A DNA stretch of 20,802 bases, taken from contig NW_003314394.1 in the NCBI RefSeq assembly GCF_000143415.4, positions 364,484 to 385,285 of the forward strand. Direction: 5' to 3'. The notes under the pieces are model-generated. The model was not told the origin of the DNA. It saw only the letters and a program-made list of their open reading frames with translations, and searched no databases. Of the stretch, positions 1,456-20,802 are shown one piece after another. The DNA is from Selaginella moellendorffii. Lineage: Eukaryota; Plantae; Lycopodiophyta. The translations under genes were made by a program, and so were the position numbers. Position 1 is the first letter of the stretch. Every line of letters begins with the position of its first letter.

Positions 1456-1479
1456 AAGCTCTATTTCGTTAAAGTGGGA
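1456..1479 (+). repeat. Left TIR (AAGCTCTATTTCGTTAAAGTGGGA), preceded by TSD AGAG at 1452-1455
   Basis: Exact reverse complement of 12029-12052. Confidence 0.95.
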
Positions 1480-1897
1480 ATTGTCATTATCCCACTTGTA
1501 AAATAAGGTTTCCAAACCTTTATATAGTATATAAATATAACAAAATTCAACTGCATTGAGGCACATGCCATTTTATTTTAAACAAGGAAATGTCTACTCA
1601 ATCACTTCTCCTCCCCCTGCCACTGCTTCACCTCTCTCTTCTCCTTGTCATCGTCGTCCAATTTCTTTCCATCCTTTTAATATTGGCTCAGTTGCTCCGA
1701 GTCTAGGTGGAGCCCAAGTCCCCATTGAATCTTTACTTTCCCATTATTAATAAAACAACTTCGTAGACTTCCAATAACATGCTGTAACACTTCTAGTACA
1801 ATGCAAATCCTCTCAAAGAATTGTCTTTTAATATTAATACAATGGCATGGAACCCCATGCCATAATAAGTTACATTTTTAAATAAATACATGCCATC

Positions 1898-2760
1898 TCA
1901 GACTGTTATTTTTTGCCTCCAACGCCTATACAATAATCTTGGAATTTCATCACTCTCCACACTATCAGGATTTAAACCCAATAGTAATGCCATCTCTTCT
2001 CTAATACGTCCACGCTCATGTTCAGTGGTCGAAGAACCCATCCGGTTGAGCAGATTATGGAGATGCGGATAGTGCTTGGCTAGACAATATACATGCCATA
2101 AATGATGACTGGTGTCTGTCCGATCAAATGGCTTCGGATATACCGTTCCATCTGCCATTTGGTTGATTTCTGCAGCCACCTCCTGGACTGGCCGGTTCTC
2201 TATCACCATCGCTCCAAGCCGTTTTGCAAGGTCCCCCAGAACATACGGTTTCTTCTCCCTAGTTTCCATACTGCAAGAGATGGGGTGCACTGCATATGTG
2301 TGCGTGTTCGCTGCAGTTTTAATCGGCGAGTCATCGATGATGAGGATTTCACTTGAGCTAGCAGTCCGGTTCATCACTACAGCCTCTGGCTTGACGAAGA
2401 TGGGCTTGCTACCCCTCACATGGACCATAGTCAAGCAATCCTCCTGCGTTAGGAGAAAGTCAAATGGTAATATTACTCGCGTCTGATCGTGCATCATCTG
2501 TAGCAACGTTAATGCATTGTGGCGCATCATGGATGTCCAAACTCCCAATTGCAAATTGAACCCGGCCCTCTGTTTTAAGTGTCGCATGGTCATTATTAGA
2601 TCCCGCAGTTTCTCCCGTGTGATTAATGTGAATCTGTCTCTTTTGACCAACTTGCGACCGCAGGCTTTGGAGGGTGCAATGACATTCGAGGACGAGCCAC
2701 GCTCATGGGAGAAAAGGACACCGTTCAGATCAAAAACGATACAGTACCTTCGCCGTGACT
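1898..2760 (-). CDS. FCP1/NIF-type HAD-superfamily phosphatase-like domain (last exon of the accessory gene)
   Basis: Motif I CIVFDLNGVLF, motif II GVWTSMMRHNA, KPIFVK, and motif IV ILIIDDSPIKTAAN...VHP. This is the DLNG variant seen in plant/fungal FCP1-homology proteins. Confidence 0.8.
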
Positions 2761-4740
2761 CTGAAATGAAATGCGTCAGCATAAAAAATGGTACAAGTCA
2801 ATTTTACCATCTACAATATTAGCGAATGTTGCTCCCGATGGTCGTTGAGAGGGTTTTGGTCGAGGAAACGTGAAGGGCGGAAATACTCTCCTCTGCAATG
2901 TGGGGTCAATCGCATCCGATGGCGTGTGGGCACATGCCATTTCAGCTGTAGACTCTGGTACAACTGGCTCAACAGTGGCATGGGGTGGTTCCGATGGCGT
3001 GTGATCACACGCCATTTCAGCTGGTGCCTCCGTTGGCAAAGTGGACATGACCGAACAGGCAGCAGGGGCGGTGTAGGGAGGTTCCAACGGCGTGTAGTCA
3101 GACGATTGGGCACACGTTGAGTCCGTTGGAAATGAGGATACGACCGGCTCGGCGGCTGGGGCGGCCTCATGTGGGTCCAATGGTGCCTGGTCACCGTCAG
3201 TTGGATACGTGGACAAGATTGACTCAGTGGTATGGGCAGCATCAAGTGGAGCGTGGTCAGCTTGCTTGGCGTTGATATGGATAGTAGCCTCCACCAGCTC
3301 TGATGACTCTTGCAGCCAAGTAGAGTCCACTGGCGGATCCATATGCATGTCCAAATATCTCCCTTCGATTGAGATGGTATCCTCCCGTGCTACTAAAAAC
3401 AAACTCATTAGCACATTGAATCGACTATACTGTATTTACCATCAACTGCTATTGAGGAACTAGGACCGATATCACTTGAGCGCACTGCTGATTCTGAAGG
3501 ATTGGACATACGTTTCGACCCTTGCTTGGCACTATCCTTCCTCGACACTAAAGGCTAGAGTTTGTAAATTCAACTGAATAATCTCTACTTACCATTTGCT
3601 CTGCGACCTACATGGACAATGTTAGAAATGGTAAAAGGTTAGGAATGGATGTATTATTATTTACCTGATGGTTTGTCTTGTATGACCTTCCTCCGCCGCT
3701 CTTTGGCCACCTCAGGCTGGCCATCGTCGTCATCATCGTCGTCGTCGTTATTGTGATCGTCACCATTGTGAGGACCATCCAAGTCCTCTTTGTCCTCCTC
3801 TTCTTCGTCCTCCTCTTCTTTGTCCTCCTCTTCGTCCTTCTGCTCTTCCTGCTCATTATCTTTCTCTGGCTCCTCATCCCCCTCCTGCATTTCTTCCATA
3901 GGCTGCTCAGGCTGGATGGCTTATTCTTCCAGGACCATCTTGGGAAAATCATCTGGCCGAGTCTCCATCTCAAAATACAAGACATCCATAGCCTGTTTTA
4001 GTGCGTGACCTAGGACCGTATCCTCACCCGACTGTCTTAACATGGTTTCTACACGTTCTTGCACCCTTCGAAGATGACGAGATGAGAAAAACGTGGCCCT
4101 GCCTTGAAAAGCTTCCCTCATCCATTGTACCTCTCCATTGAGATTGGGGAAGGGGAGTCCGCCATAGGAATCTGAGTCATGAGGTGGTGACTGCCTGCTT
4201 TCACTCAGCCCTTGATCTGCAATGAATGGCATGAGCACACACGCCATAACCGCGAGGCATTACCTATCATCTTTTCGTTGCCCTTCTTCCTTTTCGAATC
4301 AAACGCCTCTGATCTCGACGACTGTCCAACGTGCTTTCGCTTTTTATGACCACTGTCAGTTTGAGCTTGGCTGGTGCTTGCCTGTTTTGCCTTTGAAGAA
4401 GTTTCTCCTGCAAGGAATGGCATGAGACCACACGCCATTGCAAATATAATTTGTACCTCCTTTTTTCCTATTGCTTTTCTGTTTGTCCTTCTTCGATGCG
4501 CCACCAGTGCGCTTTTCAGTCCTCGTGTCTAAATATTCACAACGATCTATAATCAAAATGGCGTGAGGCCTCACGTGACCTTACCTTGTGCAGGTTGTGA
4601 GCTCGGCCCAACATGGGTATCTTCAACAGTAGCTGTTAACTCCGTTTCAGCATCTGGGGGTGGCCACGCTCCTGCATACAGAGCTTGTGAGATAACATTT
4701 AAACTTAAAGTGTGTACTCACCAGGTTCGCAGAGAAGATA

Positions 4741-5450
4741 CTATTTTTCTTTGGCAACTGTAATTATATGCTCCATTGAAGTCATCTCTTCAATGGAGTT
4801 TGTCACCGCAACACACAGGACACCCTTGAGTAGTGCGGCTCGAAAGAATAGTCCGCCGCAGTTGTACTCGACAACGCATTTGCCCTTGGAGTCGGAAGCA
4901 GGTGACCCACCCGCTATTGCGTTGAAGACCCAGCTGAGCATTTCCCATGCTGCACTTGGAGCTTTCTTTGGATTCGAAAGCTCCATAGCCGTCTTCAGTT
5001 CCTCAGGCACGGGTAAATTGACCTCCCTCAGATCAATTCGATTGGCCTTGTCGAACGAAGCTGGGAAGTCACTCTAGTCCCAATCTGCTGCAGGACCAAT
5101 AACAAGGGCGAGTGTGAAGATGCGGACATTCGTCGGTATCTTCTTCTTAGCCATTATCCCATGGATCTCCCGCATCTCCTTGCCTTTCAACCGAGCCTTC
5201 ACCTCGTTCAAGGCCTTCCAGAACTTGTGATAGGATTCGGAGTCGTAGATCATATAGTGGACTGAAGATTCCACCTCTGCAAGTCCCACCATTAAGTCAA
5301 TGATGGAGCTGACTTCGTCTGCATGAGTGATCTCCTCGTTTGTGAAGTCCATCACACAAAAGATGTTCTTGACCTGCTCATCTCTGCGGGAAACGATGCT
5401 CCTCCACCTTTGATCCTCATCCGAATTCAAGTATACCCGGTAAGGTTCTC
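4741..5450 (-). other. Degenerate beta-class (N4C/N6A) DNA methyltransferase-like region of the accessory gene
   Basis: The order IFCVMDFTN ... KKAPSAAWEMLSWVF ... GKCVVEYNCGGLFFRAALLKGVLCVAVTN resembles DPPY ... KP..l..li ... gd.VlDpF.GSG...AA...gR..ig.E. The catalytic and SAM-binding residues are not conserved. By-eye similarity only. Confidence 0.4.
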
Positions 5451-6100
5451 GATAGGCCTCTGCTGCGGGGTCGAGCTGTTTCTGAAGCCGGCGGTCGACA
5501 TCAATCTTAATGAAATTTGGATACTGATCCAACTTCTCAGCTTTACTTTTCGTGGCATCCCACAGCAGATCGATGAACTTGGGGGCCCCCTTCACGTACT
5601 CGTCGATGTCTTCATTTGACAACTCCAGCGCTTCCATCATCTCTTGCGTGGTGTCGATGCTCACCCTCTCCACGGCCACTTGCTCGAAGATCCAATCCTT
5701 CAATAGCGCACGAGCTCTCAGAGTCGTGCACAAGTCCTCGTATGTCACAATATGGCCGGGAGTCATTTTGGTCTTGTTGAAGACAACCTCACCACGTAGA
5801 AGAGCATTAGCCACTGTCAGAAGGTCGTCGTCGTCTAGAGACCGCGAGAAACACAAGGCGTTGAGCTTCAAATCATTGGGCTTCCGGCCGTCCTCCACAC
5901 CCATTGAGTTTGGTAACTCCCCGTCATGGTACCTCCTCAGCACATCTACCCATTTGTCAAAAACAACTTTTGTCGCGAGTAGAATGTTATGGATGCTGAG
6001 TGTGTCATTGACCCCCAGTGTTTTCGAGAGAAGACTCGAGAATTCCTGCAATGGAAATGGCGTGAGGCCACATGCTATGCCACATAAAAACGAGGCTTAC

Positions 6101-6620
6101 CTGCCAGGCGCTAGTTGCTAGTGCACGTCCTTGTCCTGGTTTTTGTAGCTTCTTCAGTTGAACCCAGAGCTTCCGTGTTCGTGCCAATGTCTCGTGCAGA
6201 CCCGATTTGTAGCACGTTTCTTGCTTGACATTCTGCGCGTGGGAGATGTATATGATAGATCGGAGGGGCGAGTTGCCTTTTATCAGGCGGACAACTCTTG
6301 TCTTGAAGACTTTCTTCACCTCCTCGCCCACCATAATATCCACAACTACCTCTTGCATCACCAAGCTAGAATGCTGCCCGGAGACGGCATAGAACCGGAT
6401 GTTCTGATCGTCCAACACCTTCCTATTGATCAAGTCTGGAAACCTCATCTCGCCCTTCATTCGTCTGCGATGTCGGGTGTTACTGGACTTGCCAGCATCT
6501 TCTGCTTCAATTTCTCCACCCACTCATCAGATACTAGCCTGTGGTTGTATTTGCTTTGGATGTCGATACGGCTCACGTCGATTGTATATACTTTGTTGGA
6601 ATAGTAACAAGTACTATTAT
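6101..6620 (-). other. ParB/Sulfiredoxin-like domain of the accessory gene
   Basis: VYTIDVSRIDI...NHRLVSDEWVEKLKQKML ... FYAVSGQHS ... VVRLI ... IIYISHAQN matches the ParB pattern i.i..I ... R.......l..L..si ... y.ii.G.HR ... v.v ... l.eN. A frameshift near 6460 interrupts it. Confidence 0.6.
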
Positions 6621-7502
6621 CTGCGACGATTTTTGCTGCCTCTTCTTGCTCTTTCTGCTCTTTGCGGCTCTTCTTTTTGGTGGGTGTAGTGTTCGAACCC
6701 GAGGCAATGGCATCACTGAGTAGCTTCTTTTTTGGAGCAGGAGAGTCAGACGTCGGCTTGAGCTTGACCACCCTTTTCTGCTTCGAGGTAGTTTCCAGAT
6801 CGACCCCCTTCCCCTTCGCTTCGCGAACTGGAGTCACTCTCAACGGCTCAATGTTGGAATATAGTTTTTGAACATCGCCGTAGGTGAGGTCCGTGTATTC
6901 CATGTGATCTTCATAGACCCACAGCGTCTTTGAAATTGTGGGCCTCCTGGACAACCTCTCCCTAGCTCCCTCTAGGAATTCCTCATAGCCGCTGCCCCCC
7001 TCCGGGAAGCCGCTAGGATGTGCAAGGTGGATCTTGAAGGCAGACGCTGTCTCTACCACAAGTGCCAGTCCATATTCTTGCATGGAACTGCATGGAGTGT
7101 CTGTCACTTGGATGAGGATCCCCATGCATTCTTTTCTCCCACCATCTGTGTTGTACAGCCTCAGATCCTCGCCTTCCATCCCGAAAGTCCAACTGGTGAG
7201 CTCCTCCCCCTTCTTTGCATCCACATTGACAGTGGCTGGAAGAAGAACGCAATTCCTCGCCTGTTCAGAAATGCACAACAATTAGAGCTGACAGATGAAA
7301 AGCTAGCAGCTGGAAATAACGTGAGGCCACACGCCATTCACCACTGCATCAGATGTCTTGAGGCTGCATCCTAAGATGGCGTGAGGCTACACGCCATCTG
7401 TAACCGGACTGCACTCGAGAGCCCAATCGGTGCATGCCAATGTTGCTACTGAATGGCATGTGGCCTCATGCCATTTTCTACTTGGCCTAAAAGACTTACC
7501 AT

Positions 7503-8294
7503 TTGAAGCCGAATGGAGGCGTGACAACCGGACTCGCTGGCGAATGTGCACTGTGTGTGCAGCGGATGATGTGACAAAGTTCAACCTCCGACACAAAGTC
7601 TAGAAGCTACTCAGTTTGAAATTTGTCAGAGGAATCATAAGATCTGGTTTGTCAGAGGATTTGATGTGACGTTCAAGCGTGTGTTATTTTTGAATTCTCG
7701 AACTCATTCCTAGGTCTATCATTTTTGTGCGCCGTGTTCTTGGTTCCGCTGAGCGCAGTGAGCGCTGCTTGTGTAAGCGGCGTTGTGAGCTGTGGTTTAT
7801 GCGTCTACAAGCGGTTGCGGCATTGCGAGCGCTATTGCGAGCGGCAGTTTATGCGAGTGGCAGTTTGTGCGAGCGGCGCTACGAGCAGTTGCGGTGTTGC
7901 GAGCGGCGCTACGAGTAATTGCGGTGTTGCGAGCGGCACTGTCTTTGGTGTGGCTACCGCTTCCTCTTGATATTCGGCACTTGTGCTTCCTGGTATGTTC
8001 ACCATGGAATGGTTTAGAACCACATTTAGAAATGGCATGAGGCCACATGCCATCTTGGGCCCTTGCAATTTCATGGCTAGCGTATTGTCATGTATGTTTT
8101 TACTTGCCTGCAGCTGTGTGTATATCAAGATGGCATGAGGCCTCATGCCAATTTTGTGAATGCGAAATTTCACGTGGGTGTCAATAGCATGTTTGAATAA
8201 TGGCATGTGGCCTCATGCTATTTGGTATGTTATGATTTAGGCCATTCTCCAATCATTTTTTGTATGGTCTTAACTTCTTTTCTGCACTTTCAGA
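7503..8294. promoter_or_regulatory. Divergent promoter / 5'-leader region shared by the two transposon genes, with a probable 5'-UTR intron
   Basis: It lies between head-to-head ATGs (7502 -, 8295 +). A direct repeat tttgtcagagga is at 7622-7633 and 7648-7659. An acceptor tttcag ends at 8293, with candidate donors gtatgt at 7993 or 8225. Confidence 0.6.
7810..7940 (+). repeat. CpG-rich tandem repeats (TGCGAGCGGC core; 30-bp unit x ~2.3 at 7869-7937)
   Basis: gcgagcggcgctacgagcagttgcggtgtt / gcgagcggcgctacgagtaattgcggtgtt / gcgagcggc, preceded by shorter variants. Confidence 0.85.
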
Positions 8295-11200
8295 ATGGCC
8301 TTCAGGGTTGGGGAAAAGGTTTACATTTTGAATGGTGGGAAGAGAGTTGCAAAAGGGACCCTTGTGTCTATGGATCGGAACTTTGTTATACACTGTCAAA
8401 GGCTTGGGGAAGGCAATGCTGCTGTATCAGTAGAGACTGTCTTCGATGGGAATGTGGTCGCTATTGAACGAGGAGAGATGGTCGTCGGGGTAAATGTTGT
8501 TGTTGCCTTGAAAAATCTGCAGAAGAAAGCAGATGTTGGGGACAACGCAAGTGCGACGCATGTTCCCTCCGTGGATCTTAAGAACCGTGCTACATGGATT
8601 CAAGCAAAGGTGTTTCTAAACAACCCCGAGGGGGAGGTGGTAGCTGAGGGCTTAGCCACAGTTGTCGATCCAAGAGATGCGGTTGCTAATCAAGAATTGG
8701 GCTGGGATGATATTGGAGTTGCAATTTTAGAGGTTGTTGACACAGAAGAAAACAGTCTGACTATTGGAAGCATTGTGCGGTGGAAATTGAGGCACTTAGT
8801 GTTTGAGAATGTGAAGGATTCACAATCAAACACCACTACAACTGATGACAGAACATCTCTTCATGGGAAAAAAAAGTACACCTTCCTAAAGCGCAGCCAA
8901 AGGGATCTGAGCAACGAACCGAAAAGGCAGAAAATGGCGATGGAGGTTCGAATGGTCTCGACAGTTGCTTGTTGCAAGAGGAGGTGCTGTCAACATGCTG
9001 ATTGGGATGCTATTGAAGAGGAGAGAGCAAGATACAAGACATTGTCCTGGAAGGCAGCTCGCAATTTTGTGTATGAGGCATTACGGTCATCTGTTGATGC
9101 TTCAGAACATCAGGTGGGGGGCATGGTCTTCCAGAGGGGTTTGGTCTGCATGAAGGCATGGAGAATCATTTATGGAGTCCCTCGAAGCACATTCTACAGA
9201 ATCAAAACTGAGTTCGAGGAACAAAGGGTTCAACAGGTAGTCCATGGGAACGACGGTACGCACAAAACCAGGGGTCATGTTGTATATGGAGAGGCAATCT
9301 TCAAGAGGTTTGTCGAGACATGTAGCGAGCAGCAACCACATAAAACCCGCCTCTTGGAAGATGGAACACGAGACACCCAACGAGTTCTCCCTTCCATGTA
9401 TACCAAGGGGGCCATATTGGAAGATGTGAATCGGGAACTCCAGAGTAATGGCTACAGGAAGCTGAGCCAATCTAGATTTAGTAGATTGTGGAGCAACAGG
9501 TTCAGGGATGTGAGTATAGGAAAGTACTCCAGCTTTTCAAAGTGTGACGAGTGCACTGCTATCAAAATGGCTTTGTCGAAGAATTCTTGCAGCGCTCAAG
9601 AGCGAGAGACGTTGGTTAGAAGGCGGCTCGACCACAACATCGAGCAGAGAAGCTGCAGGACTGCATATTATCATAACAGGATTCTCTCCATGGAGAGACC
9701 TGACTCTTACCTCTGCATCATCCACGACAAAATGGACCAGAAAAAGACGTGCTTACCTCGACTCAATCCTGCCCCCAAGGCAATCTCTTCATCCATGCAG
9801 CTGCCTGTGTCTCTGTTTGGCATAATCGCTCATGGGCATGGTGCCCAGAACTATGGGAACTTCTTTGTACCTCTATGGGGTGGCGGGGGTGCAAACATGA
9901 TGATTGCGTCCCTAGCAAAACACTTAAGGTCTCTGCAAAGTGCGCAGACTGAGCTGAACGGCCAACCCTTGCATAAGGCCCTTGTCGATCGAACCCCATA
10001 CAGGGTTCAGCTGGAGGAGGAGCAAAGGCTTGCAGTATCGCGTGGGGCCCCATGCCATCCCAGTGAATATGTTGGCCGTCAGATTGTAGGGTTATCACGT
10101 GAGGCCTCATGCCATTCCGACGAGGCTGGTCGCCCGGTGAATGCACAGCCTCATCCAAACGAAGCAGAATCTCAAGGAAGTTCTTGCGGCCGATGTGGCC
10201 TTCCACCCCATCTTCTGCTCCAAACAGACAATGCTGGCAGTGAGAACAAAAACATGTACGTCTTCGCGTACTTGGCGATGCTTGTTGCCAAAGGCATATT
10301 TGAAACGGTTACACTTGGCTTTCTCATGGTTGGGCACACTCATGAAGACGTCGATGCCATGTTCAGTCACCTGGCAGAGTCCCTCCGGCGATCCAATGTC
10401 CTCACCCTCCCACAACTCTACGATGAATTCCAAAATTGCATCAAAGGCACTGTTGAAGCTGCACTTGTGACAGAGGTTCCAGACTTTAAGGGGTTTGTAA
10501 GAGGCTACATCAGGGACGGATCCGAAACGCTGATTGGCCACTCCAAGCCTCTTCAGTTTCATTTCAGCATGCGTGACGGTGCTCCAGTGATGAGGTACAA
10601 GATGAGAGAATGGGACACAGTGTGGCTGCCAGTGGACGGCATTGAACTCTTCAAGAGAGATCCCATAACTGGGGAACCTATGATTCCTCAGGGTTCCCCA
10701 CGGCCAATGCACCCGGATGGACTCAAAGACCAGGAAAGTATAGTGGCCGGGATTAGACAGCATATTGCCTTCTGGAAGAGGGGGTTGGTGTTTGGTGGAG
10801 AATCCTATTTTAAGAGGTGCAAGCCTTTGCTCGAATACTGGGAGAAGATTATATCTGCTATCCAAAATGGGCCGGTTGTATATGAAGAATTGGAAGAGTC
10901 CTTTTGGCCAGAACCCAGAGCACCAGATAGTAGCGGAACAATGTCCTCTGGAAATGCAGTGACAGATAACGATGTTGAGGATCATTATTGTGGGCCGAGG
11001 AACAAGAAGCCGGATTCAGCATTCAATCCAGTACAGGTCTGCAAAGGAATGGTCGTGCTTGTCAGACCCAGTAATAAAAAACAAATGATATGGGTGGGGC
11101 GCTGCATCACTGATGCAGAGGAGGACGCGGAAACTAACTCCTTCAATGTAACTGTGGAGTGGTTCAAGCCAAGTTCCGGATATACGAAGGATTGCCTAGA

Positions 11201-11436
11201 AAAGAGATGGGTGTTGAATCCAAGGGATCCCAGCATGAGCATATTGGTGGATAATGTTGTGCATGGTTGGATGCGGAAGCAGAGTGCCACCATCACCTTG
11301 CCAGACCATGCAAGAGATGCAGCAAGAGCATTCATAACCCGGGTTCAAGGTGAGATTCATTAATATTCCTTTACTAAGTTTCTAATGTATTTTATTTCAA
11401 GGTGAACAATCCGAATCTGAATCAGAGGAGGCGTGA
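8295..11436 (+). CDS. Sola-like / DUF7869-type DDD transposase, ~1029 aa (exons 8295-11349 and 11402-11436)
   Basis: Uninterrupted ORF with CCKRRCC, VCMKAWRIIYGVPRSTF (HTH-like) and SKCDEC..H (Zn). Putative catalytic aspartates lie in CIIHDKMDQKK, LLLQTDNAGSENKN and FLMVGHTHEDVDAMFS. A probable 52-nt phase-1 intron (11350-11401, gtgaga...ctaat...tttcaag) gives the C-terminus GEQSESESEEA*. Confidence 0.85.
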
Positions 11437-12028
11437 TGGCATGTGGCCCTTTGCACTAGTATATCTTAATACTGGTCTGAGAAATAGAATGGCATGTGCC
11501 CTCAGGCCTTTTACTAAATCACCTTTGAAAGAAATGCAAGCCTCTATGTCGTAAAAAAAAGGTACTAGAGAAATTCCTTAATAATATGAATGTTATTTAG
11601 TTTTATGAAAATACACTAAGGGTCAAATGAGTTAAATGACTTCTCCAGACTAGCAATGCCTCTTGCTACACCTTCACAATTAGATTCGTTAGAAAAAGAT
11701 AACATTGAATAATATCTAAATGTTCTCACCATTAAGTTATATGTCTGGCTAATAGGAATGACGTTCATCTTGGAAAGCTCACCACACGCTCAATGAACAA
11801 ACAAATAGTGTGTGCGCGCATGCCATCGCTCTTCTTTAGCTTCAGATTCGGCTTGTTCACCTTGACAATGAGATTTATTATACAACCAGATGGACTCAGT
11901 CTGGACACAAAGTCACCGCGCTAGTCACCATGCCCCAGATATGTCTAGCCCCTAGACAAAAAACATATAATTTCACGTCATTTTCAAATACTTGAAAATT
12001 TGTACCTAGTCCCATTTTACTGAATAAA

Positions 12029-12052
12029 TCCCACTTTAACGAAATAGAGCTT
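12029..12052 (-). repeat. Right TIR (TCCCACTTTAACGAAATAGAGCTT), followed by TSD AGAG at 12053-12056
   Basis: 24/24 match to the left TIR in inverted orientation. Confidence 0.95.
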
Positions 12053-13329
12053 AGAGGGTGTTTCTCCATTGGACTATAACTCTTGCCTTGGATTTCATGC
12101 TCAGGTTGCATTACCATTTGTATAGAAATTTTTCACTTGGCTCAGGCTATGTTCTAGGTTATTTGGCCCTTCCCTTACTATTACTCTACCCCACACATTC
12201 CCCCACCCATTCTATATCATCTACACTCACAGATCCACCACCAATCATTTTTAGTAGCATTTTCTACACTTACTTCCAAATGCCCGTCTTGCATCTTCCA
12301 TTCTTTCACCATTGTCCACATAGGTCATATTTACTCCATACCATGGACACAAATACACACACCGGTAGCAAAAGACATCACCTCATTTAAACATGTTGTT
12401 TTCAAAATATCATTATGACCATTTTCTGATGACGTGCTAGCTTTTCTAGAGTGACTTTCTTTCAACCAGATGAACCCATTCACTCAAAGCACCTAGGTGG
12501 ATTTTTAGGCAAGGCCACAGAAGTTGAAGCCACTTTCTCCTGCTCTAGCACTCAGTGGACATATACCACCTATCTTTACCAGCAATTCAGCGATTATGTC
12601 ATCCTTTTTTGTTGTGGTTTTCTTTAATCTGACATATCAGACTATAGGTTTGACACTTCTAGAGATGGCCACCTTCTCAAAGTGCCACCACCATCTTGGC
12701 ACTCCACCATATCACTCCATCTTTCATCATTTTTACACTTCCCACCCTTGGGTAATGCATTCCCTCTTCTACCTCTCTTTTTTTCTCGATTCGGCCAATC
12801 CTTACTTGAAGTCATCATGAGGCAATATTTGCATATTACACTTTCTTAAGGCAAAATTCAGGTACAGGTCTTTGGGTTCTCACTTTTTTTGCTTTTATTT
12901 TCTTTCTTTTTTCACACAGTTTGACTATAGAGATTTCTATTGGGTTTTCCACTCTATCTTCAAACTTCACCCCTACCCCTTTTCTGTCTTTTTCCATTTT
13001 ATTTTCCAGAGTTTCTACTAGTTCACGCAGTGACCAAGACTTGGCATTAGCAGCAAAGGTGCACTCTACACTTTTTGGGGGGTTCTCATGCATCTAGAGC
13101 TGGCAAGATCCACTGTGTGGGTGGGGGGGAGAATATTCCAATTCTTAGAATATTCTTTATCTTCCTTATATAAAACCCTTGCCCCACAAGGGCAAAGGGG
13201 GGGCATTTGTGGAGAGTATTAGAGCATTTTTTCGTATTTGAGCAAGTGTTGGGGGAGTGCCCTTCCTCCCCTCAGCAACTATTTGAAAGTAATTTTACCT
13301 TTAATAGACCAAATGAGAAAAAAAAAATG

Positions 13330-14190: not shown

Positions 14191-14923
14191 GTGAGTTAAT
14201 TGTTACAACACAAAAACCGTTAGAGGGATCAGAAAAGGAAAGAGCGGAACAAGACAACAATATAGAAGGATGTAATGGGGAGACAAAAGTAATGGAAGCA
14301 GAGGTAAAAACGTAGGGACGAAGAGGTACAGAAGTGAGAAGAATGGATGAAATATAAGGAAGTATGACACAAGGGGATAAAGTCTCAAAATCACACTTGA
14401 TATGATTATGTTACAATTAATCTATACCAAAAATGAGGTCAAAAGCTTGACTCAGCATCACCCGCAATGACTACAATTCAAACTCGAGAATGCCTATATG
14501 CATAACTAAGTCCGCCTCATCCCATGCATATGCATATGTACGGTTGTTGCCATAAAGAATTGGTTTTGCCACACAACGTAAATGTAGATGGCAATATGTG
14601 GCAATAGGTCAAGCAATAGAAGATAAACTTGAACCTGTATGTAAGCTTTTGAATTTAGACTTCCTGGGAGGTCAGTCAACCTAATACTATTCAAACCCAA
14701 GGATGCTTAACCCTAAATATCCCAAGGCCCTTAACCAATTGGAAAAGAGGGTGCACTCTTATTCATGGGCCCTTTCCCTCTATATTTGAACTCCATAGAT
14801 CGTCTCTCGAATCATTCCCTTTAGTTGCTTACAATCCACCATGCTTCCTTGTAAGTTCACGCCCTCATGAACGAAAGCTGAGAGCCACAGCTCTCCCAAG
14901 AGCCCTGCTCTCTTAACACCCTA

Positions 14924-15863
14924 TGTAGCGCACCTGAATTTAGAGCCATACTCCAATCCCATTGCACTACGAACAAGGATCTGGTACAATCCCACGAGCA
15001 CCAACTCCCCGTATCCAGCACCTGCACGCAAAATGGTGTCAGACGGAGTCTGACACAATTTTGGCATACCGGTGGCCTAATGCGAGGAGGGTACTCCACC
15101 GACTAGAGCAGCGTGGAGCTTGGGCTTAGACCCAAGCCGGATGCAAAACAAGGAGCAACACAGCCCAGCGGGAGTCAAACTAATGTCTCAGGTGGTCGGA
15201 CATGCATTCCAACCACTATCTCTACTATACATTTGGAACCCCCCACAGCCCCCCCCCCCCCTCCCCCCCCCTCCCCCCTCCCCCTCTTTGAGGAACACAC
15301 GCTTTGGGCTTTCACCCCAAGCCTCCCTTAGTACCAGGAGTTAGTCTCTGGGACAAACTCGAAACTTACTAAATATGGAATGTCTTTAGATTGAGAATTT
15401 GGACACGGGACGAACACCATTGTGTTTAGGCTGATCTCTACATTCCATAGATATGCTAAATGAGCAAATCTAGACACTTTCCATAAATAGCATATGGGAC
15501 CGAAATGAGACCAACACTAAGGGCATGATAGCAAGGGTGTTTAGCAGACACGGTAAGCTATCATTTAGTGATATTGAGGGACTAGTCTCAATACGTAGGG
15601 GTTCTTGATACTAACAAGTGCAAGCTAATGACACGAGTTTCTCAAACCAGGCCAAGTATGCTCAACAAGAAACACATAAGGTTCCTACCTTATGTTTATC
15701 CGATTTAAGTACACGGTCATTGACCAGTTTCTCAACTAGCTCAAGTGGGAACAATAAAGGGAACCAACTGTATTGACCTTCTGCCGTCATGGCAGTAAGG
15801 AAAGAGTGTCTGTAAGGATTAGCCAACAAGTATCTTTCGACACCTGAAGTCACATTCGCGACA
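14924..15863 (-). repeat. 3' LTR (~940 bp)
   Basis: Ends TGTAGCG...CGCGACA form an imperfect inverted repeat. It abuts the PPT at 15864-15876, and its left end matches the sequence from 20756 onward. Confidence 0.8.
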
Positions 15864-15876
15864 CTCTCCCCCCCTT
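15864..15876 (-). promoter_or_regulatory. Polypurine tract
   Basis: A minus-strand purine run (plus strand ctctccccccctt) lies directly before the TG of the LTR. Confidence 0.8.
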
Positions 15877-16473
15877 GGGGAAGATTGACGTCCTAGTCGA
15901 TGTATACCTGAGTCTAGCAAACCGTCAAGGAAAAAATTTCGAAAGTTAACGGAAAGCACACTATGTGGAAAATAGACCGACTTAAATGAGTTATGGAACA
16001 ACCTCTCCTCTATGTCCAAAGACGTTAAGACTCAGACACCCTTTGGCTGTCGCCGATAAGGAAATGACTAATGGAGTTGGCCACCCTTGCTACTTTGAGT
16101 ACCACTCGGCTTACAAAGGAATGATACATCCCTGCCTGCAGGGACATAGGGAGAAGGCCAGAGGCCCAACTGCCCTTGAGCAAGAAATCAACCCCGTCGG
16201 GAAGATTTAGACAACTATTATAAACTGGCAGATTAAGTTGTTTACACGACCACTCCCTTTTTCGAAAATGAGTCATTGAGAGAGAGGCGGAGACTTGTGA
16301 TTAGTCTATAATAGTTATCCCCATGATTATAGATTGGACCCATGCAACGAAGTGCCAAAGTCAGCTTGCCAAAACTGACCCAAGTACGAATGAATGAAAG
16401 AAATGACACTTTGATTGATAGAAATATATTACTTTATTGATTTGCAAGATTTATTACAAGGTTTTTACAAAAA

Positions 16474-19400
16474 TTAGTCTTTATTACTATTCTCATACTC
16501 CGTGACAAGCTCATGAGCATGTGTAAGATTCCTAAGAGGTTCCCAAGTTAATTCACAAGTTGGGTAACCTTTCCACTTAACTAGATATTCCTTGGAATGA
16601 CCACCACTAGCTTTGCGAGACAAGAGAATCACTTTGACCTCATACTCCATGTCACCATTCACAACATCCGGAGGGGGACGAATGTCCACAGAGCGATTCG
16701 TAGCAACATGATATGGTGCTAGTAAACTGAAATGAAACACATCAGCCCTAGACCAACCTTGGCGTAGCTGCTCCGCATAAGTCTCAACAGCCAAGACCAA
16801 CATTTTGGACATAGGTTTCGGTACAACGATTTGTTGAGGAACCCCATGAGCATTCCCTTGCAGCATCTCCCATGGAGAACAGTCTATAGCACTGTGAAAT
16901 GTGTTGTTATAACATATTTCTGCTGTATCCAAATGCTCAACCCAATCGCGTTGGTCTGCCGCAACATAGTACCGCAAATAATCCTCAACTTGAGCATTCA
17001 CGCATTCGGTCTGCCCATCAGTCTGAGGATGATAAGCTGTACTAAATTTTATCTTGGTACCAAACAGCTGGAACAATGTGCCCCAAAACTTCCCTGTAAA
17101 CCTTGAATCCCTATCCGAGATCATTTTTTCGGGAAGACCACGAACCCGCACGACTTCATTGAAAAAGAGCTTTGCTGCTTGTTTCGCATTCACTGTTCCC
17201 ACAATTGGAATGAAGTGTGCAATCTTCGACAATCAATCCACAACCACCATCAAAGTATCATAACCCTTAGACTTTGGCAAGCAAGTGACAAAATCAAGTG
17301 TCACACAGGAACGGATATAATCCGCTATATCACCTTTCATACCAGACCAGAAAAATCCCTTTTTCAATGAAGCCAGAGTCTTTCGTTGTCCACCATGTCC
17401 CGCTGCTGGAACATCATGATATTCCTGCAGAAACAACTGTTGTAGATCCTTAGAGGGAAGATACAATCTTTCTTGTTTATAGAATATAAGCCCATCCCGA
17501 ACCGAGAAGTGAAGCTTTGCATTGGTGCGGTTAGCAACTTTCCCTGCCTCACTATCAGAGTTCTGCTTCGACAACTCTGCACGGCATAAGATTGCTTTCG
17601 CCAATGAATCACTTCCATACGAAGCCCAAACGTCCTCCAACCAGTCCAAACTGATTGCCGATATTGCCCAAAATTAAGCTTGACGACTGAACGCATCCGG
17701 AACAATATTGTCTTTACCAGGTTTATATATGATTTCAATATAATATCTAGAAAGCTTCTCTTGCCAACGAGCCTGCTTTGGCGTAAGCTTAGGTTGCGTA
17801 ATAAAGTAGCTTAGTGTGTTACTATCCGTATAAACCTTGGTATGTCCACCCAAGTAGTGTCTCCAGTGTTCTAGGGCCGACACTATAGCAAACATCTCTT
17901 TCTCATGCGTTGGCCATCTTCGTTGGGTCTCATCCAATTTCTTGGAATAAAACACAACGGGACAACCATGTTGCCTTAGCGTAACACCAACCACTTTGTC
18001 ACAATCTTGCTGTAACACGGCACCAATAGCATAACAAAATGCATCACAATGCACTTCGAAGGGTTTATCAAGATTTGGGATCTTGAGAACAAGAACCGTA
18101 GTCAAGATCTCCTTCAACCGTACAAAAGCATGCTAACAAGCTAGTGTCCAGTGAAACGGAATACTACTCTTCATCAACTCAGTCAATGGAAGAGCAATTC
18201 TTGCAAAATTGCAAACAAACTTGCAATAGTATCCCGCCAAACCAAGAAAGGAACGAATATCTGATACAGTGGTTGGAACTTCCCAGGACTTCACTACTTC
18301 CACCTTCCTTGGATTGACCTCAATTACGCCAGCACTAACTATATGTCCGAGAAAGTTTACGTGCAATTTTCCAAAAGCACATTTACTTTCCTTAGCATAC
18401 AGTTTGTGTTTGCGCAACTTCTGAAACACCAGCTCCAAGTGTTTCAAATGATCCTCCAATATTTTGCTAAATACTAGAACATCGTCGATGTATAGGACAA
18501 CAAATGTGTCCAAGTAATTTCTAAATATTCTATCCATCATAGTGTTGAACATTGCCGGAGCATTGCATAACCTGAACAGCATGACAAGGAACTCATAAGA
18601 TCCATACCGATCCTTAAAGGCTGTCTTCTCCACATTCTGATTTGCCACCTGTATCTGATGATACCCGGACTGCAAATCAAGTCACGTAAAATACTTAGCC
18701 TTTAAGAGTTGGTCAAACAATTCATCAATGCGAGGCAAAGGATAACTGTTTTTAACCGTGATCTTGTTGAGTGCCCAATAGTCAATACACATCCTAATAG
18801 TTCCATCCTTTTTCATAACAAAAAGGACCGGCGCTCTATAAAGTGACTTGCTTGGTCATATATGACCTTTGTCAAGAAGATCCGTGAGTTGCTTCTTGAG
18901 TTCAGCCATCTCTTTGATGTTCAACCGATATGGAGCTTTTGTAGGTGGTTTAGGACCCAGAATAACCTCAATTCGATGATCAACCTCACGACTAGGAGGT
19001 AGCCTTGGCGGAAAATCCTTTGGAAAGATATCTTGATTCCTCACCAACAACTCCAATATCCTCTTTGGTACAGGATCAACCCCGTCGCTGATTCGAACTG
19101 AGTCACCAACACCCTCAGCTTCCATCACTTGAACCCAAAAGGTATGACATCCCCTCTTAGCTGCTTTTTGAGCGGCCCTCGCAGTCAGGAACTTTGCATC
19201 CCAATCCTTTAAGGAACGCTTTTGCAACTGAAAGGATATATCAGGACATCCTTCTGACTTCAACGTGATATGACTTTGTCTAGCACCATAAATCTTTTTT
19301 ATATACTTGTTGAAGAAATCCATACCAAACACCATCTAAAAATCTGGTATTTTCAACACTACCAAGTCCACTTTTTCTTTCCACTTGGATATCTTTATTG

Positions 19401-20565
19401 GAACATCACTCATAAACTTTCTGGCTACTTGCCCACCTTTCGCAAACTAGAAGTGCATAGGCGACATTTGCTCAGCATTCAATCTTAACAACTTAACTAA
19501 GTCTTCAGATATCATGTTGTGTGTAGCTCCCATGTCAATCATCACTCGGATTCGGTGTCCATGAACAAAGCCTACTAGATACATCAACGGATCAGTATTT
19601 GCATTGAGTACATGAAAAGCTTGAGGAAAGCAACAAAAGTTACTCACCTCTTCTTCCTCATAGTCTGCATTGACCAACTTGTCAACCCCTTCAGCTTTAC
19701 CACCACTGTCTTCCCTCATGACATTAACCCGAGACCTTGTCTTATGCTTGTTAAGACATTCCAAAGACCTATGTCCCAACTCTCCACAATGGAAGCAATG
19801 ACCCACACTACCTATTCCGCTAGGAGCAAGTTTTGCAGATTGCTGCTACTTGCACCCACCAGGAGGAAGAACAGAGGGCCTAGGACCAGAAGAAGCTGCT
19901 GGTGGTCTCCAACCACCACCACCTTTGTTAACCGTTGCTTGTGAGCCTCCAGAGCGGAACCTGCCTTCCACACTCTATTTCCGATCACCTTGTTTATTCC
20001 TAGAATTTTTATTCTTATCTGAGTTACCAACATATGATTGCTAATATTGTTCCATGAGCGAGTGACTAAAGGCAACTTGCTGCGCTGCCTCCTTACACTC
20101 CAAGTACGTCTTTGGCTTAAACTTCAAAATCTCATTACAAGAAAGTGAACTTAAACCCTCCAGTTAATAACTCCGAGCATCTTCGTCACTCATATTTGCA
20201 ATCATAATGCACTTCTGAGCAAACGCATTAACGTAATGCATGAGATCCCCTCGTGCAACCAGGGGCAACTGTAGAACTTCATCGTCCTTAGAACTCGAAG
20301 AGGAGTCCGGTTGCTTAGGCTTAGCTGGTTTAGCTGCCTCAGCTTCTTTCTTCCTCTTCTTGTTCTCCTTCTTCAATTTGCGGACCTCCCTTTGCAAATT
20401 CTCAATCTCGACTTCCTGAGCCGTATGTTGTAACGCCGCAGCATCTGGCTCTTCCTCTTCCGACTTAGCCTCAGCCTCTTCCACAGCATCTCTAGCAGGA
20501 GTTTCCTCCTCTCGATTCACCCATCTAGAGGTTTCAGCATCATCAGCACAGTTCCTCTTCACCAT
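16474..20565 (-). pseudogene. gag-pol pseudogene of the chromovirus
   Basis: CCHC knuckle CFHCGELGHRSLEC; protease IDMGATHNMIS; RT VLYIDDVLVFS; RNase H FEVHCDAF..AIGAVL, EKEMFAIV and DNIVPDAFSR; integrase YHDVPAAGHGG, ISDRDSRF and YHPQTDGQTE; chromodomain YEVKVIL...EYLVKWKGYPTCELTWEP. Multiple stops, frameshifts and deletions. Confidence 0.93.
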
Positions 20566-20741
20566 CCTGCTAGCTGCATGCATGCCTCTATTAGTAACTG
20601 AACATGCATACAATGTTCTTACCGAATGGTGCTATCCAACTAATCCTACATAGGTCGCTTCGGATCTACTAGAAAAGTCTCTGCGTATGCAACTTGAGTT
20701 AGAAAATCCGACAAAAGTTGGATAGGAATCGCTGAGACAAT

Positions 20742-20753
20742 CCTTTGATACCA
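20742..20753 (-). promoter_or_regulatory. Primer-binding site (tRNA-Met-like)
   Basis: Minus-strand TGGTATCAAAGG lies 2 nt from the LTR end (...GCTACA). Confidence 0.85.
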
Positions 20754-20755
20754 AA

Positions 20756-20802
20756 TGTAGCGCACTTGAATTTGGAGTCGAACTCCAAGCCCGTTGTGCT
20801 AC
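20756..20802 (-). repeat. Inner end of the 5' LTR (partial)
   Basis: tgtagcgcacttgaatttggag... aligns without gaps to 14924-14970. Confidence 0.88.

Follow-up and report, generated by a model that had tools for sequence, protein, structure and literature searches.

Repeated 22-bp palindromes in a Sola-like transposon of Selaginella moellendorffii: candidate docking sites for an element-encoded ParB-like protein

Introduction

Several transposons have been shown or proposed to encode proteins that recognize the DNA of their own copies. In Ectocarpus, the transposon Sola1-1_Ec32 carries an opposite-strand gene with ParB-like and N4C/N6A methyltransferase domains, and its product is proposed to act on the transposon that encodes it, by binding and modification (PMC12477816). 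Here, we describe a stretch of 20,802 nucleotides from Selaginella moellendorffii (contig NW_003314394.1; 'the window' denotes this stretch at its full length), in which a Sola-like DNA transposon contains 19 copies of a 22-bp palindrome together with a divergent accessory gene that comprises a candidate ParB-like region. Sola1-1_Ec32 and the window element are both large and of the Sola type, with a 4-bp target site duplication (TSD), AA...TT termini and an accessory gene on the opposite strand. Sola1-1_Ec32 differs in its length of 21.5 kb and its 282-bp terminal inverted repeats (TIRs), and the main text of the same paper mentions neither an FCP1-like domain nor a palindromic site; unreported palindromes may exist in its sequence. 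Nor is it described there as targeting AWWT.

A second algal precedent is the Plavaka (EnSpm) transposon of the red alga Bostrychia, in which the ParB-like protein PAG3 is encoded beside inverted-repeat arrays; self-binding is put forward there as a proposal (10.1101/2025.02.11.637652). A ParB-like accessory protein and inverted repeats thus occur in one element, as in the window, but PAG3 is accompanied by a different transposase superfamily and a 2-oxoglutarate (2OG) oxygenase as partner domain. The repeats form tandem arrays beside the gene, whereas those of the window are isolated sites spread over the element, some of them in mini-introns. In the VANDAL21/VANC system of Arabidopsis, family-specific motifs likewise occur in introns, between genes and in terminal DNA that is non-coding, and the motifs differ among related families, as they do among the lineages considered here (PMC5735166). 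VANDAL21 is, however, a Mutator-type element with 8-9-bp, non-palindromic, tandem-multiplied motifs, for which binding and demethylation have been demonstrated experimentally in that study, while the window element has a DUF7869 transposase and isolated 22-bp palindromes with unrelated flanks. The TnpA protein of Spm and the AtMu1 transposase are further cases of element-encoded, sequence-specific activation of cognate copies via clustered motifs (10.64898/2026.08.24.746577). They differ from the present case in that their motifs are short and terminal and that the binder derives from the helix-turn-helix (HTH) of a transposase.

Beyond transposons, the arrangement resembles bacterial ParB/parS, in which a palindromic site is bound by a dimeric protein of the ParB family (in the window, a candidate), and one member of this family, VirB, acts as a bacterial anti-silencer (PMC10653881). 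A repeated palindrome of fixed geometry in cis, as in ParB/parS, is present in the window element. The bacterial systems have 16-bp sites, demonstrated binding of cytidine triphosphate (CTP) and a ParA partner, whereas the window has 22-bp sites, and its ParB fold and HTH are only candidates. The literature covered, with most subscription literature outside its scope, contains no account of this palindrome, nor of any Sola element from a land plant in which sites of this kind occur. The feature is real, and its design is a variant of a known, still hypothetical scheme in which a ParB-like transposon protein binds its own element. Self-binding by algal ParB-like proteins is, in the texts cited above, a proposal with no defined site, to which the window element adds a precise candidate.

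Occurrence and Geometry of the Palindrome

A pattern scan of the window for ATGGCRTG-N6-CAYGCCAT returns 16 matches with at most two mismatches, eight of which are exact, against none in 100 dinucleotide shuffles of the window. At up to three mismatches the count is 18 (the additional sites are 1550 and 4558), and a nineteenth site, at 11436, combines a perfect left arm with four mismatches overall. Another four-mismatch row, at 8004, was chance-like and was excluded from the set. All 19 sites lie inside the transposon (1456-12052) and none occurs in the remaining 10,205 bases of the window at up to four mismatches, which bears out the first-pass annotation of this DNA, where some 19 copies restricted to the element had been reported. 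The sites are listed below with their surroundings (UTR, untranslated region).

1550..1571: palindrome, left subterminal region, three mismatches
1842..1863: palindrome, 3' UTR of the accessory gene, exact
2919..2940: palindrome, coding linker, exact
2994..3015: palindrome, coding linker, 75-bp duplicate of the one at 2919, exact
4226..4247: palindrome, predicted 47-nt intron 4217-4263, exact
4417..4438: palindrome, predicted 49-nt intron 4408-4456, exact
4558..4579: palindrome, predicted 56-nt intron 4529-4584, three mismatches
6057..6078: palindrome, predicted 55-nt intron 6046-6100, one mismatch
7316..7474: three palindromes (7316, 7376, 7453), predicted 239-nt intron 7261-7499
8032..8221: three palindromes (8032, 8130, 8200), between the divergent genes, 74-263 bp upstream of the transposase ATG
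10037..10115: two palindromes (10037, 10094), in frame within a variable insert of the transposase
11436..11826: three palindromes (11436, weak; 11489; 11805), 3' UTR and right subterminal region

The arms are separated by 6 bp in 12 of the 15 pairs in which each arm has at most one mismatch. The constant spacer length noted at first reading therefore stands, but the idea that spacer sequence is free does not: of the 38 half-sites, 31 have A or T at position 9, 35 have G at position 10 and 27 have G at position 11. The full site has the consensus ATGGCRTGWGGCCWCAYGCCAT, i.e., ATGGCRTG-WGGCCW-CAYGCCAT, with a half-site of 11 bp. Within the half-site, a CpG position keeps its C in 37 of 38 halves, followed by A in 22 and G in 15 (22 CA, 14 CG, 1 TG and 1 CC as dinucleotides). 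Plain decay is not expected to yield a fixed C beside a base that toggles between G and A, unless the copies share ancestry.

The two halves vary without compensatory pairing, as 159 positions are paired and shuffling the right halves gives 156 (P 0.25); for the three variable columns, these numbers are 31 and 26 (P 0.08). Sequences flanking the sites are mutually unrelated, with a mean best identity of 29.0% over 171 pairs and of 29.0% at random positions. Only two of the 171 pairs have related flanks, namely 2919/2994, which stems from the 75-bp duplication, and 11436/11805, which is inverted. Tandem Repeats Finder reports no array covering the palindromes. Both the view that the sites are neither tandem duplications nor MITEs (miniature inverted-repeat transposable elements) and the view that they have the geometry of a site for a dimer, which had been expressed from the sequence alone, agree with these results: constant spacing, independent halves and unrelated flanks point to duplex DNA as the target of a dimeric protein, and away from a hairpin or a MITE. 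On comparison with both TIRs, the half-site is contained in neither.

As a background, albeit not that of the host, 596 Gb of prokaryotic sequence contain the loose pattern in about 1,200 stretches, which is near chance, and the strict consensus has no match in viral contigs, a background that is not the host's either. Besides the paired sites, lone exact half-sites are present at 1889 and 2092, one of them within the NIF exon. A 47-bp inverted repeat (11397-11443 and 11819-11865; 83% complementary) has palindrome half-sites as its inner ends.

Placement of the Sites within the Element

Seven of the 19 sites are located in predicted introns, eight in UTR, intergenic or subterminal DNA and four in coding linkers; of these last four, a proline-rich linker holds two and the length-variable insert of the transposase the others. 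Conserved coding DNA (6.2 kb or 59% of the element) contains none of the 19 (P 5e-8) and non-coding DNA (25% of the element) contains 15 (P 2e-6), with the reservation that the region labels were drawn after the sites had been seen and that the introns are predictions only. Avoidance of the conserved domains had been proposed in the first-pass annotation. On the predicted gene model, these same 15 of 19 sites show a placement of the VANDAL/VANC type, in introns, intergenic and terminal non-coding DNA. The seven intronic sites occupy five of the ten predicted introns, with one site each in the introns of 47, 49, 55 and 56 nt; these four introns of the accessory gene are mostly filled by their palindrome.

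The Transposon and Its Copies

1456..12052: Sola-like cut-and-paste DNA transposon, 10,597 bp, delimited by a TIR pair, a TSD and an empty-site joint
1456..1482, plus strand: left TIR, 27 bp, without half-site
12026..12052, minus strand: right TIR, 96% complementary to the left TIR
8295..11363, plus strand: uninterrupted open reading frame (ORF) of a DUF7869 transposase, 1022 amino acids (Pfam E 2e-42)

The element has AA...TT termini and is flanked by the 4-bp TSD AGAG (1452-1455 and 12053-12056). In contigs of runs X1 and X2, which come from one sample, position 1451 is joined to 12053 with an overlap of four letters. This empty-site joint fixes the ends of the element, though it may derive from a paralogous copy, since the flank is itself repetitive. 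The transposase belongs to DUF7869, which we take to be a family that covers Sola transposases, and its candidate acidic residues occur in the motifs IIHD (D478), QTDN (D645) and GHTHEDVD (E684-D687). Based on the DUF7869 match and the conserved acidic motifs, we classify the element as Sola-like. TIRs and a 4-bp TSD, features of the Sola superfamily (Sola1), are present as well. The hallmark of Sola1 is a preference for AWWT targets (PMC3845634), which AGAG does not match at the one insertion seen, a single site that cannot define a preference.

Homologues of the transposase, among which one of Riccia, are 27-40% identical, except for one copy at 97%. Their alignment reveals a length-variable insert at about 9951-10200. 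The N-terminal segments (8295-8810) show a weak match to Transposase_23 (En/Spm TNP1; E 0.009), with DUF8039 in the homologues, and the conserved C-terminal domain (10980-11360) has no match in Pfam. A conserved Cys-rich stretch is HTH-like, as judged by eye.

The element belongs to a young and very abundant family: of 46,500 X1 contigs that match it, 28,956 are at least 99% alike, and the low-depth run X3 also assembles the family. Compared with the X1 family, the copy in the window mostly has A or T where the others have G or C (A>G at 35 and T>C at 29 places), and such substitutions, which resemble the deamination of methylated cytosine, suggest that this copy was probably silenced at one time. 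The observed/expected ratio of CpG is 0.67 inside the element and 0.27 and 0.50 in the flanks.

Variation among copies gives a weak indication that the sites are better conserved than the surrounding intron DNA, which had been named as a test in the first-pass annotation. In 7290-7500, six positions vary at 1% or more, none of them in the three sites that make up 66 of the 211 bp (chance about 0.1). Of 264 rows of variants, 40 were listed; the 39 of these that are in the element all miss the sites, where about 1.5 hits would be expected. One 1-base deletion touches a palindrome arm in about 1% of the X2 depth. Some further differences among copies were observed. About 1% of the X1 depth skips the 59 bases 4190-4248, by which site 4226 and part of its intron are lost. 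Loose contig ends at 7567, 3797-3836 and 8031-8150 indicate extra sequence in other copies or derivatives; near 7567, where the first exon of the accessory gene should lie, it exceeds 200 nt.

The Accessory Gene

1898..7499, minus strand: divergent accessory gene, predicted to encode more than 1,600 amino acids, ten GT-AG introns, broken in this copy
6101..6645, minus strand: weakly matching ParB-like region, split by a frameshift, with an SGQHS motif
5475..6045, minus strand: conserved helical domain without assigned fold, four usable homologues (23-27%)
4744..5475, minus strand: amino-methyltransferase-like region of permuted type, as judged by eye (motifs VMDFT and VVEYNCGG)
1898..2760, minus strand: FCP1/NIF-like HAD phosphatase domain with an FDLNG motif, predicted in-frame fusion (Pfam NIF E 4.5e-6, above the cut-off)

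The accessory gene is damaged by a frameshift near 6461 and stops at 5076, 4743 and 3923, and its first exon is undefined. Only this copy has the stop at 3923, and near the frameshift additional letters are found in others. With nine predicted GT-AG introns of 45-57 nt removed, one frame runs through 1,377 codons and meets three internal stops, whereas the alternative frames of the two longest exons comprise 19-26 stops each. The tenth predicted intron (7261-7499) lies upstream of these nine. Introns of 45-57 nt, as predicted within 2761-6100, are very short for a plant gene. Run X20, taken for RNA by guess only, contains no splice joint and one contig that spans the first predicted intron; it was used neither for nor against the gene model.

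The ParB-like region weakly matches the ParB-like phrog_1033 (E 0.047), DUF3723 (Atlas score 0.90) and ParB_N (0.88), the latter two below the Atlas recognition mark. Leads of the ParB type are found on both sides of the frameshift, in the correct order. The adjoining helical domain, downstream of it, is confidently modelled (predicted local distance difference test (pLDDT) of 58-91 per block), and fold searches return no match to a solved fold; dynein heavy chain N1 was rejected as a label for this domain because its Atlas score is below the recognition mark. Six homologues were found, from which P0029 and P0034 were dropped as repeat-driven chance matches, leaving four.

N4C/N6A methyltransferases of the PF01555 type are characterized by motif I, which binds S-adenosylmethionine, and the catalytic motif IV, (D/N/S)PP(Y/F/W). 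The stretch VVEYNCGG of the methyltransferase-like region resembles motif I and is shared with P0031 (pairwise E 1e-5), while no family profile matches the region. A PP(Y/F) word was not seen by eye in the window region or in three homologues, and the model has a pLDDT below 50 there. The region is predicted to be inactive. Acidic and low-complexity linkers connect it to the FCP1/NIF-like domain. The ParB and methyltransferase labels are leads, drawn from sequence comparison and backed by precedent. Two segments of the accessory protein retrieved no homologues among longer proteins when used as queries, and its pieces gave only chance rows in a PDB sequence search and in tblastn against phages and plasmids. 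Since no ParA-like family is found among the element ORFs scanned, the element does not appear to be a partition system.

Palindromes at Related Loci

We compared 80 loci with related transposases. The window palindrome, with three mismatches allowed, never matches more than once per locus, while other palindromes are repeated in several of them: GCTCAAAC-N4 in L001 and L003; GGAAATCTA-N8 in L008, L010, L012 and L014; CYCACGGG-N6 in L015 and L032; TTTGGCCA-N2 in L002, with ten copies at up to three mismatches; and CGTCGGC-N5 in L006, whose six sites are spread over linkers, a gap that resembles an intron, and the 3' region including the 3' UTR. No clear palindrome array is present in L004, L005, L007 and L009. 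In Markov-resampled sequence, four copies are reached in three of 243 trials. The type of palindrome follows the transposase clades (26 of 57 rows used; L032 is tied to L015 by tblastx), an agreement that does not demonstrate co-evolution, as kin share labels.

Relics of the accessory domains occur at some of these loci. L054 has a decayed helical-domain relic 8 kb upstream of the transposase (E 6e-5), and NIF relics of the FDLNG type lie near the transposase in L043, L059 and L077 (the scan covered 145 of 167 ORFs from 21 loci). The window is therefore not alone in linking these domains. In L054, the helical relic is followed by a GQH word (750-1160; E 0.39), which weakly suggests a domain order other than that of the window. 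In the 29 related loci tried, no TIR/TSD pairs were found. Another group of AT-rich, plant-like contigs (L016, L021, L023, L042, L048, L050, L053, L057 and L074) contains tandem arrays of palindromic units, mostly with periods of 45-60 bp and at 1.5-10 kb from the transposase.

Interpretation and Alternative Explanations

A dimeric reader encoded by the element would be expected to select such sites: the palindrome is long, its spacing is fixed, its halves are independent and its flanks unrelated, the copies are spread over the whole element and the words differ between lineages. We favour the ParB-like protein as this reader, because ParB proteins recognize palindromes, the half-site is absent from the TIRs and seven sites are located far inside the element, in introns of the accessory gene. 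In this interpretation, to which we give an even chance, the palindromes would be family-specific, parS-like double-stranded docking sites for a dimer of the ParB-like protein. The protein would load at the 19 palindromes and, by spreading from these loading points, would coat the whole 10.6-kb transposon. The likeliest purpose would be to keep the promoters and ends of the element usable despite host silencing, by analogy with VANC and VirB; alternatively, the same binding could result in autorepression of the two divergent genes. We infer the ParB identity from weak matches, motif order and published precedent; binding by the protein, and its spreading outward from the sites, are inferred as well. 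The complete chain, from binding through to anti-silencing, draws on this analogy and is put forward tentatively, as a possibility well short of even. Marking of the DNA by methylation is not favoured, because the methyltransferase-like region apparently lacks the catalytic PP(Y/F).

Several observations weigh against a ParB-like reader. Its ParB identity is weak, given the phrog_1033 and Atlas values above and a model pLDDT of 36, and the region has no Pfam or PDB match. ParB proteins have a GxxR motif for CTP, the arginine of which is missing from SGQHS. Five of the ten predicted introns have no site, and conservation of the sites across copies is weakly suggestive. Arrays of at least four copies within 2.5 kb of the transposase occur in ten of 56 non-redundant loci; among 25 distant segments, three have such an array, so that enrichment is not clear, although the distant arrays may sit in giant elements. 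None of the 80 related loci has both an array and a recognizable accessory gene. The array of L014 is situated just upstream of the transposase, with no accessory homologue detected in the 10 kb upstream, and the arrays of L015 flank the transposase on both sides. Finally, the only helical-domain relic, that of L054, accompanies a palindrome family of three copies.

The strongest alternative is that the transposase itself binds the palindromes, either for transpososome assembly or to activate its own copies, with the accessory gene as a passenger. Arrays occur in relatives in which no accessory gene was detected (L014, L015, L002 and L006), the palindrome type tracks the transposase tree, the AtMu1 transposase binds and activates its cognate copies according to the study cited above (10.64898/2026.08.24.746577), and the Cys-rich, HTH-like stretch provides a conceivable binding domain. 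Yet, the half-site is missing from the TIRs, only five of the 19 sites are within 650 bp of an end, the seven intronic sites are 2.7-6 kb from the nearest end, and lineages with differing palindromes have almost the same putative recognition helix. Moreover, the contigs of the relatives are incomplete and homologues at 23% identity are hard to detect, so the absence of the accessory gene is not established. We consider a transposase reader possible, if somewhat unlikely.

A host transcription or chromatin factor might also bind the sites, with the element exploiting it for tissue-specific expression. Such a role would suit the three sites between the divergent genes and the three in the first intron, and the arms include CATG and CACG words. 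Unrelated palindromes in related lineages fit element-encoded readers better, and 22 constrained bases seem long for the site of a host factor, which makes this explanation improbable. Equally poor prospects are given to a single-stranded function, in which the repeats would act as RNA hairpins that aid the splicing of very short introns, or as DNA cruciforms. Folding is better than in shuffles for two of the four mini-introns with a site (z -1.7 and -2.5), and three sites end 9-11 nt from a predicted 3' splice site, but the other two mini-introns have no stem and the halves lack compensatory pairing. In addition, 12 of the 19 sites are outside introns, five introns of similar size are without a site, and no Rfam family is matched.

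Least probable of these is a neutral origin, in which duplication or conversion would have multiplied a small internal repeat and left the present copies as relics. One pair does come from the 75-bp duplication, about 1% of the X1 depth lacks 4190-4248 and with it one site, and in several relatives the motif occurs in tandem units. Against this, 169 of the 171 flank pairs are at background identity, a C is fixed next to a toggling G/A, and the design recurs with different words in five other lineages. A MITE or a tandem repeat is rejected, as no shared flanking unit, TSDs or head-to-tail array surround the copies.

Returning to a ParB-like reader, a further-reaching version may be formulated, which we regard as unlikely. 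A land-plant transposon would have adopted the parS-and-clamp logic of bacteria, with a ParB-like protein that loads at the 19 palindromes and slides over the element. Several of the sites would be housed in purpose-sized introns of 47-56 nt, and site and reader would co-diverge per lineage. An inactive methyltransferase fold and an FCP1-like phosphatase would be brought to the element's own chromatin and defeat its silencing. The idea of self-binding as such is made directly testable by the precise candidate site, by a family both young and very abundant, and by relatives whose different palindromes serve as natural specificity controls. If that idea is true, a ParB-type clamp would act on eukaryotic chromatin, and plants would have an anti-silencing route in addition to VANC, TnpA and the transposase.

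Other Features of the Window

Between the divergent genes, GC-rich tandem repeats of 15, 16 and 30 bp (7776-7937) form a candidate promoter or leader. The right flank of the transposon contains a decayed Ty3/gypsy element (14913-20802, minus strand) with protease, reverse transcriptase, RNase H, integrase and chromodomain. Its long terminal repeats probably start at 14913 and 20745, where copies of a 58-nt repeat are located. In the left flank (1-1455), positions 1 and 291 carry the copies of a 24-bp direct repeat, which is followed by the primer-site-like TGGTATCAGAGC, and decayed integrase-like sequence reaches the insertion point, both as judged by eye. These retroelement-like features suggest that the transposon inserted in older retroelement DNA. 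One contig joint carries a repeat of the TTTAGGG type.

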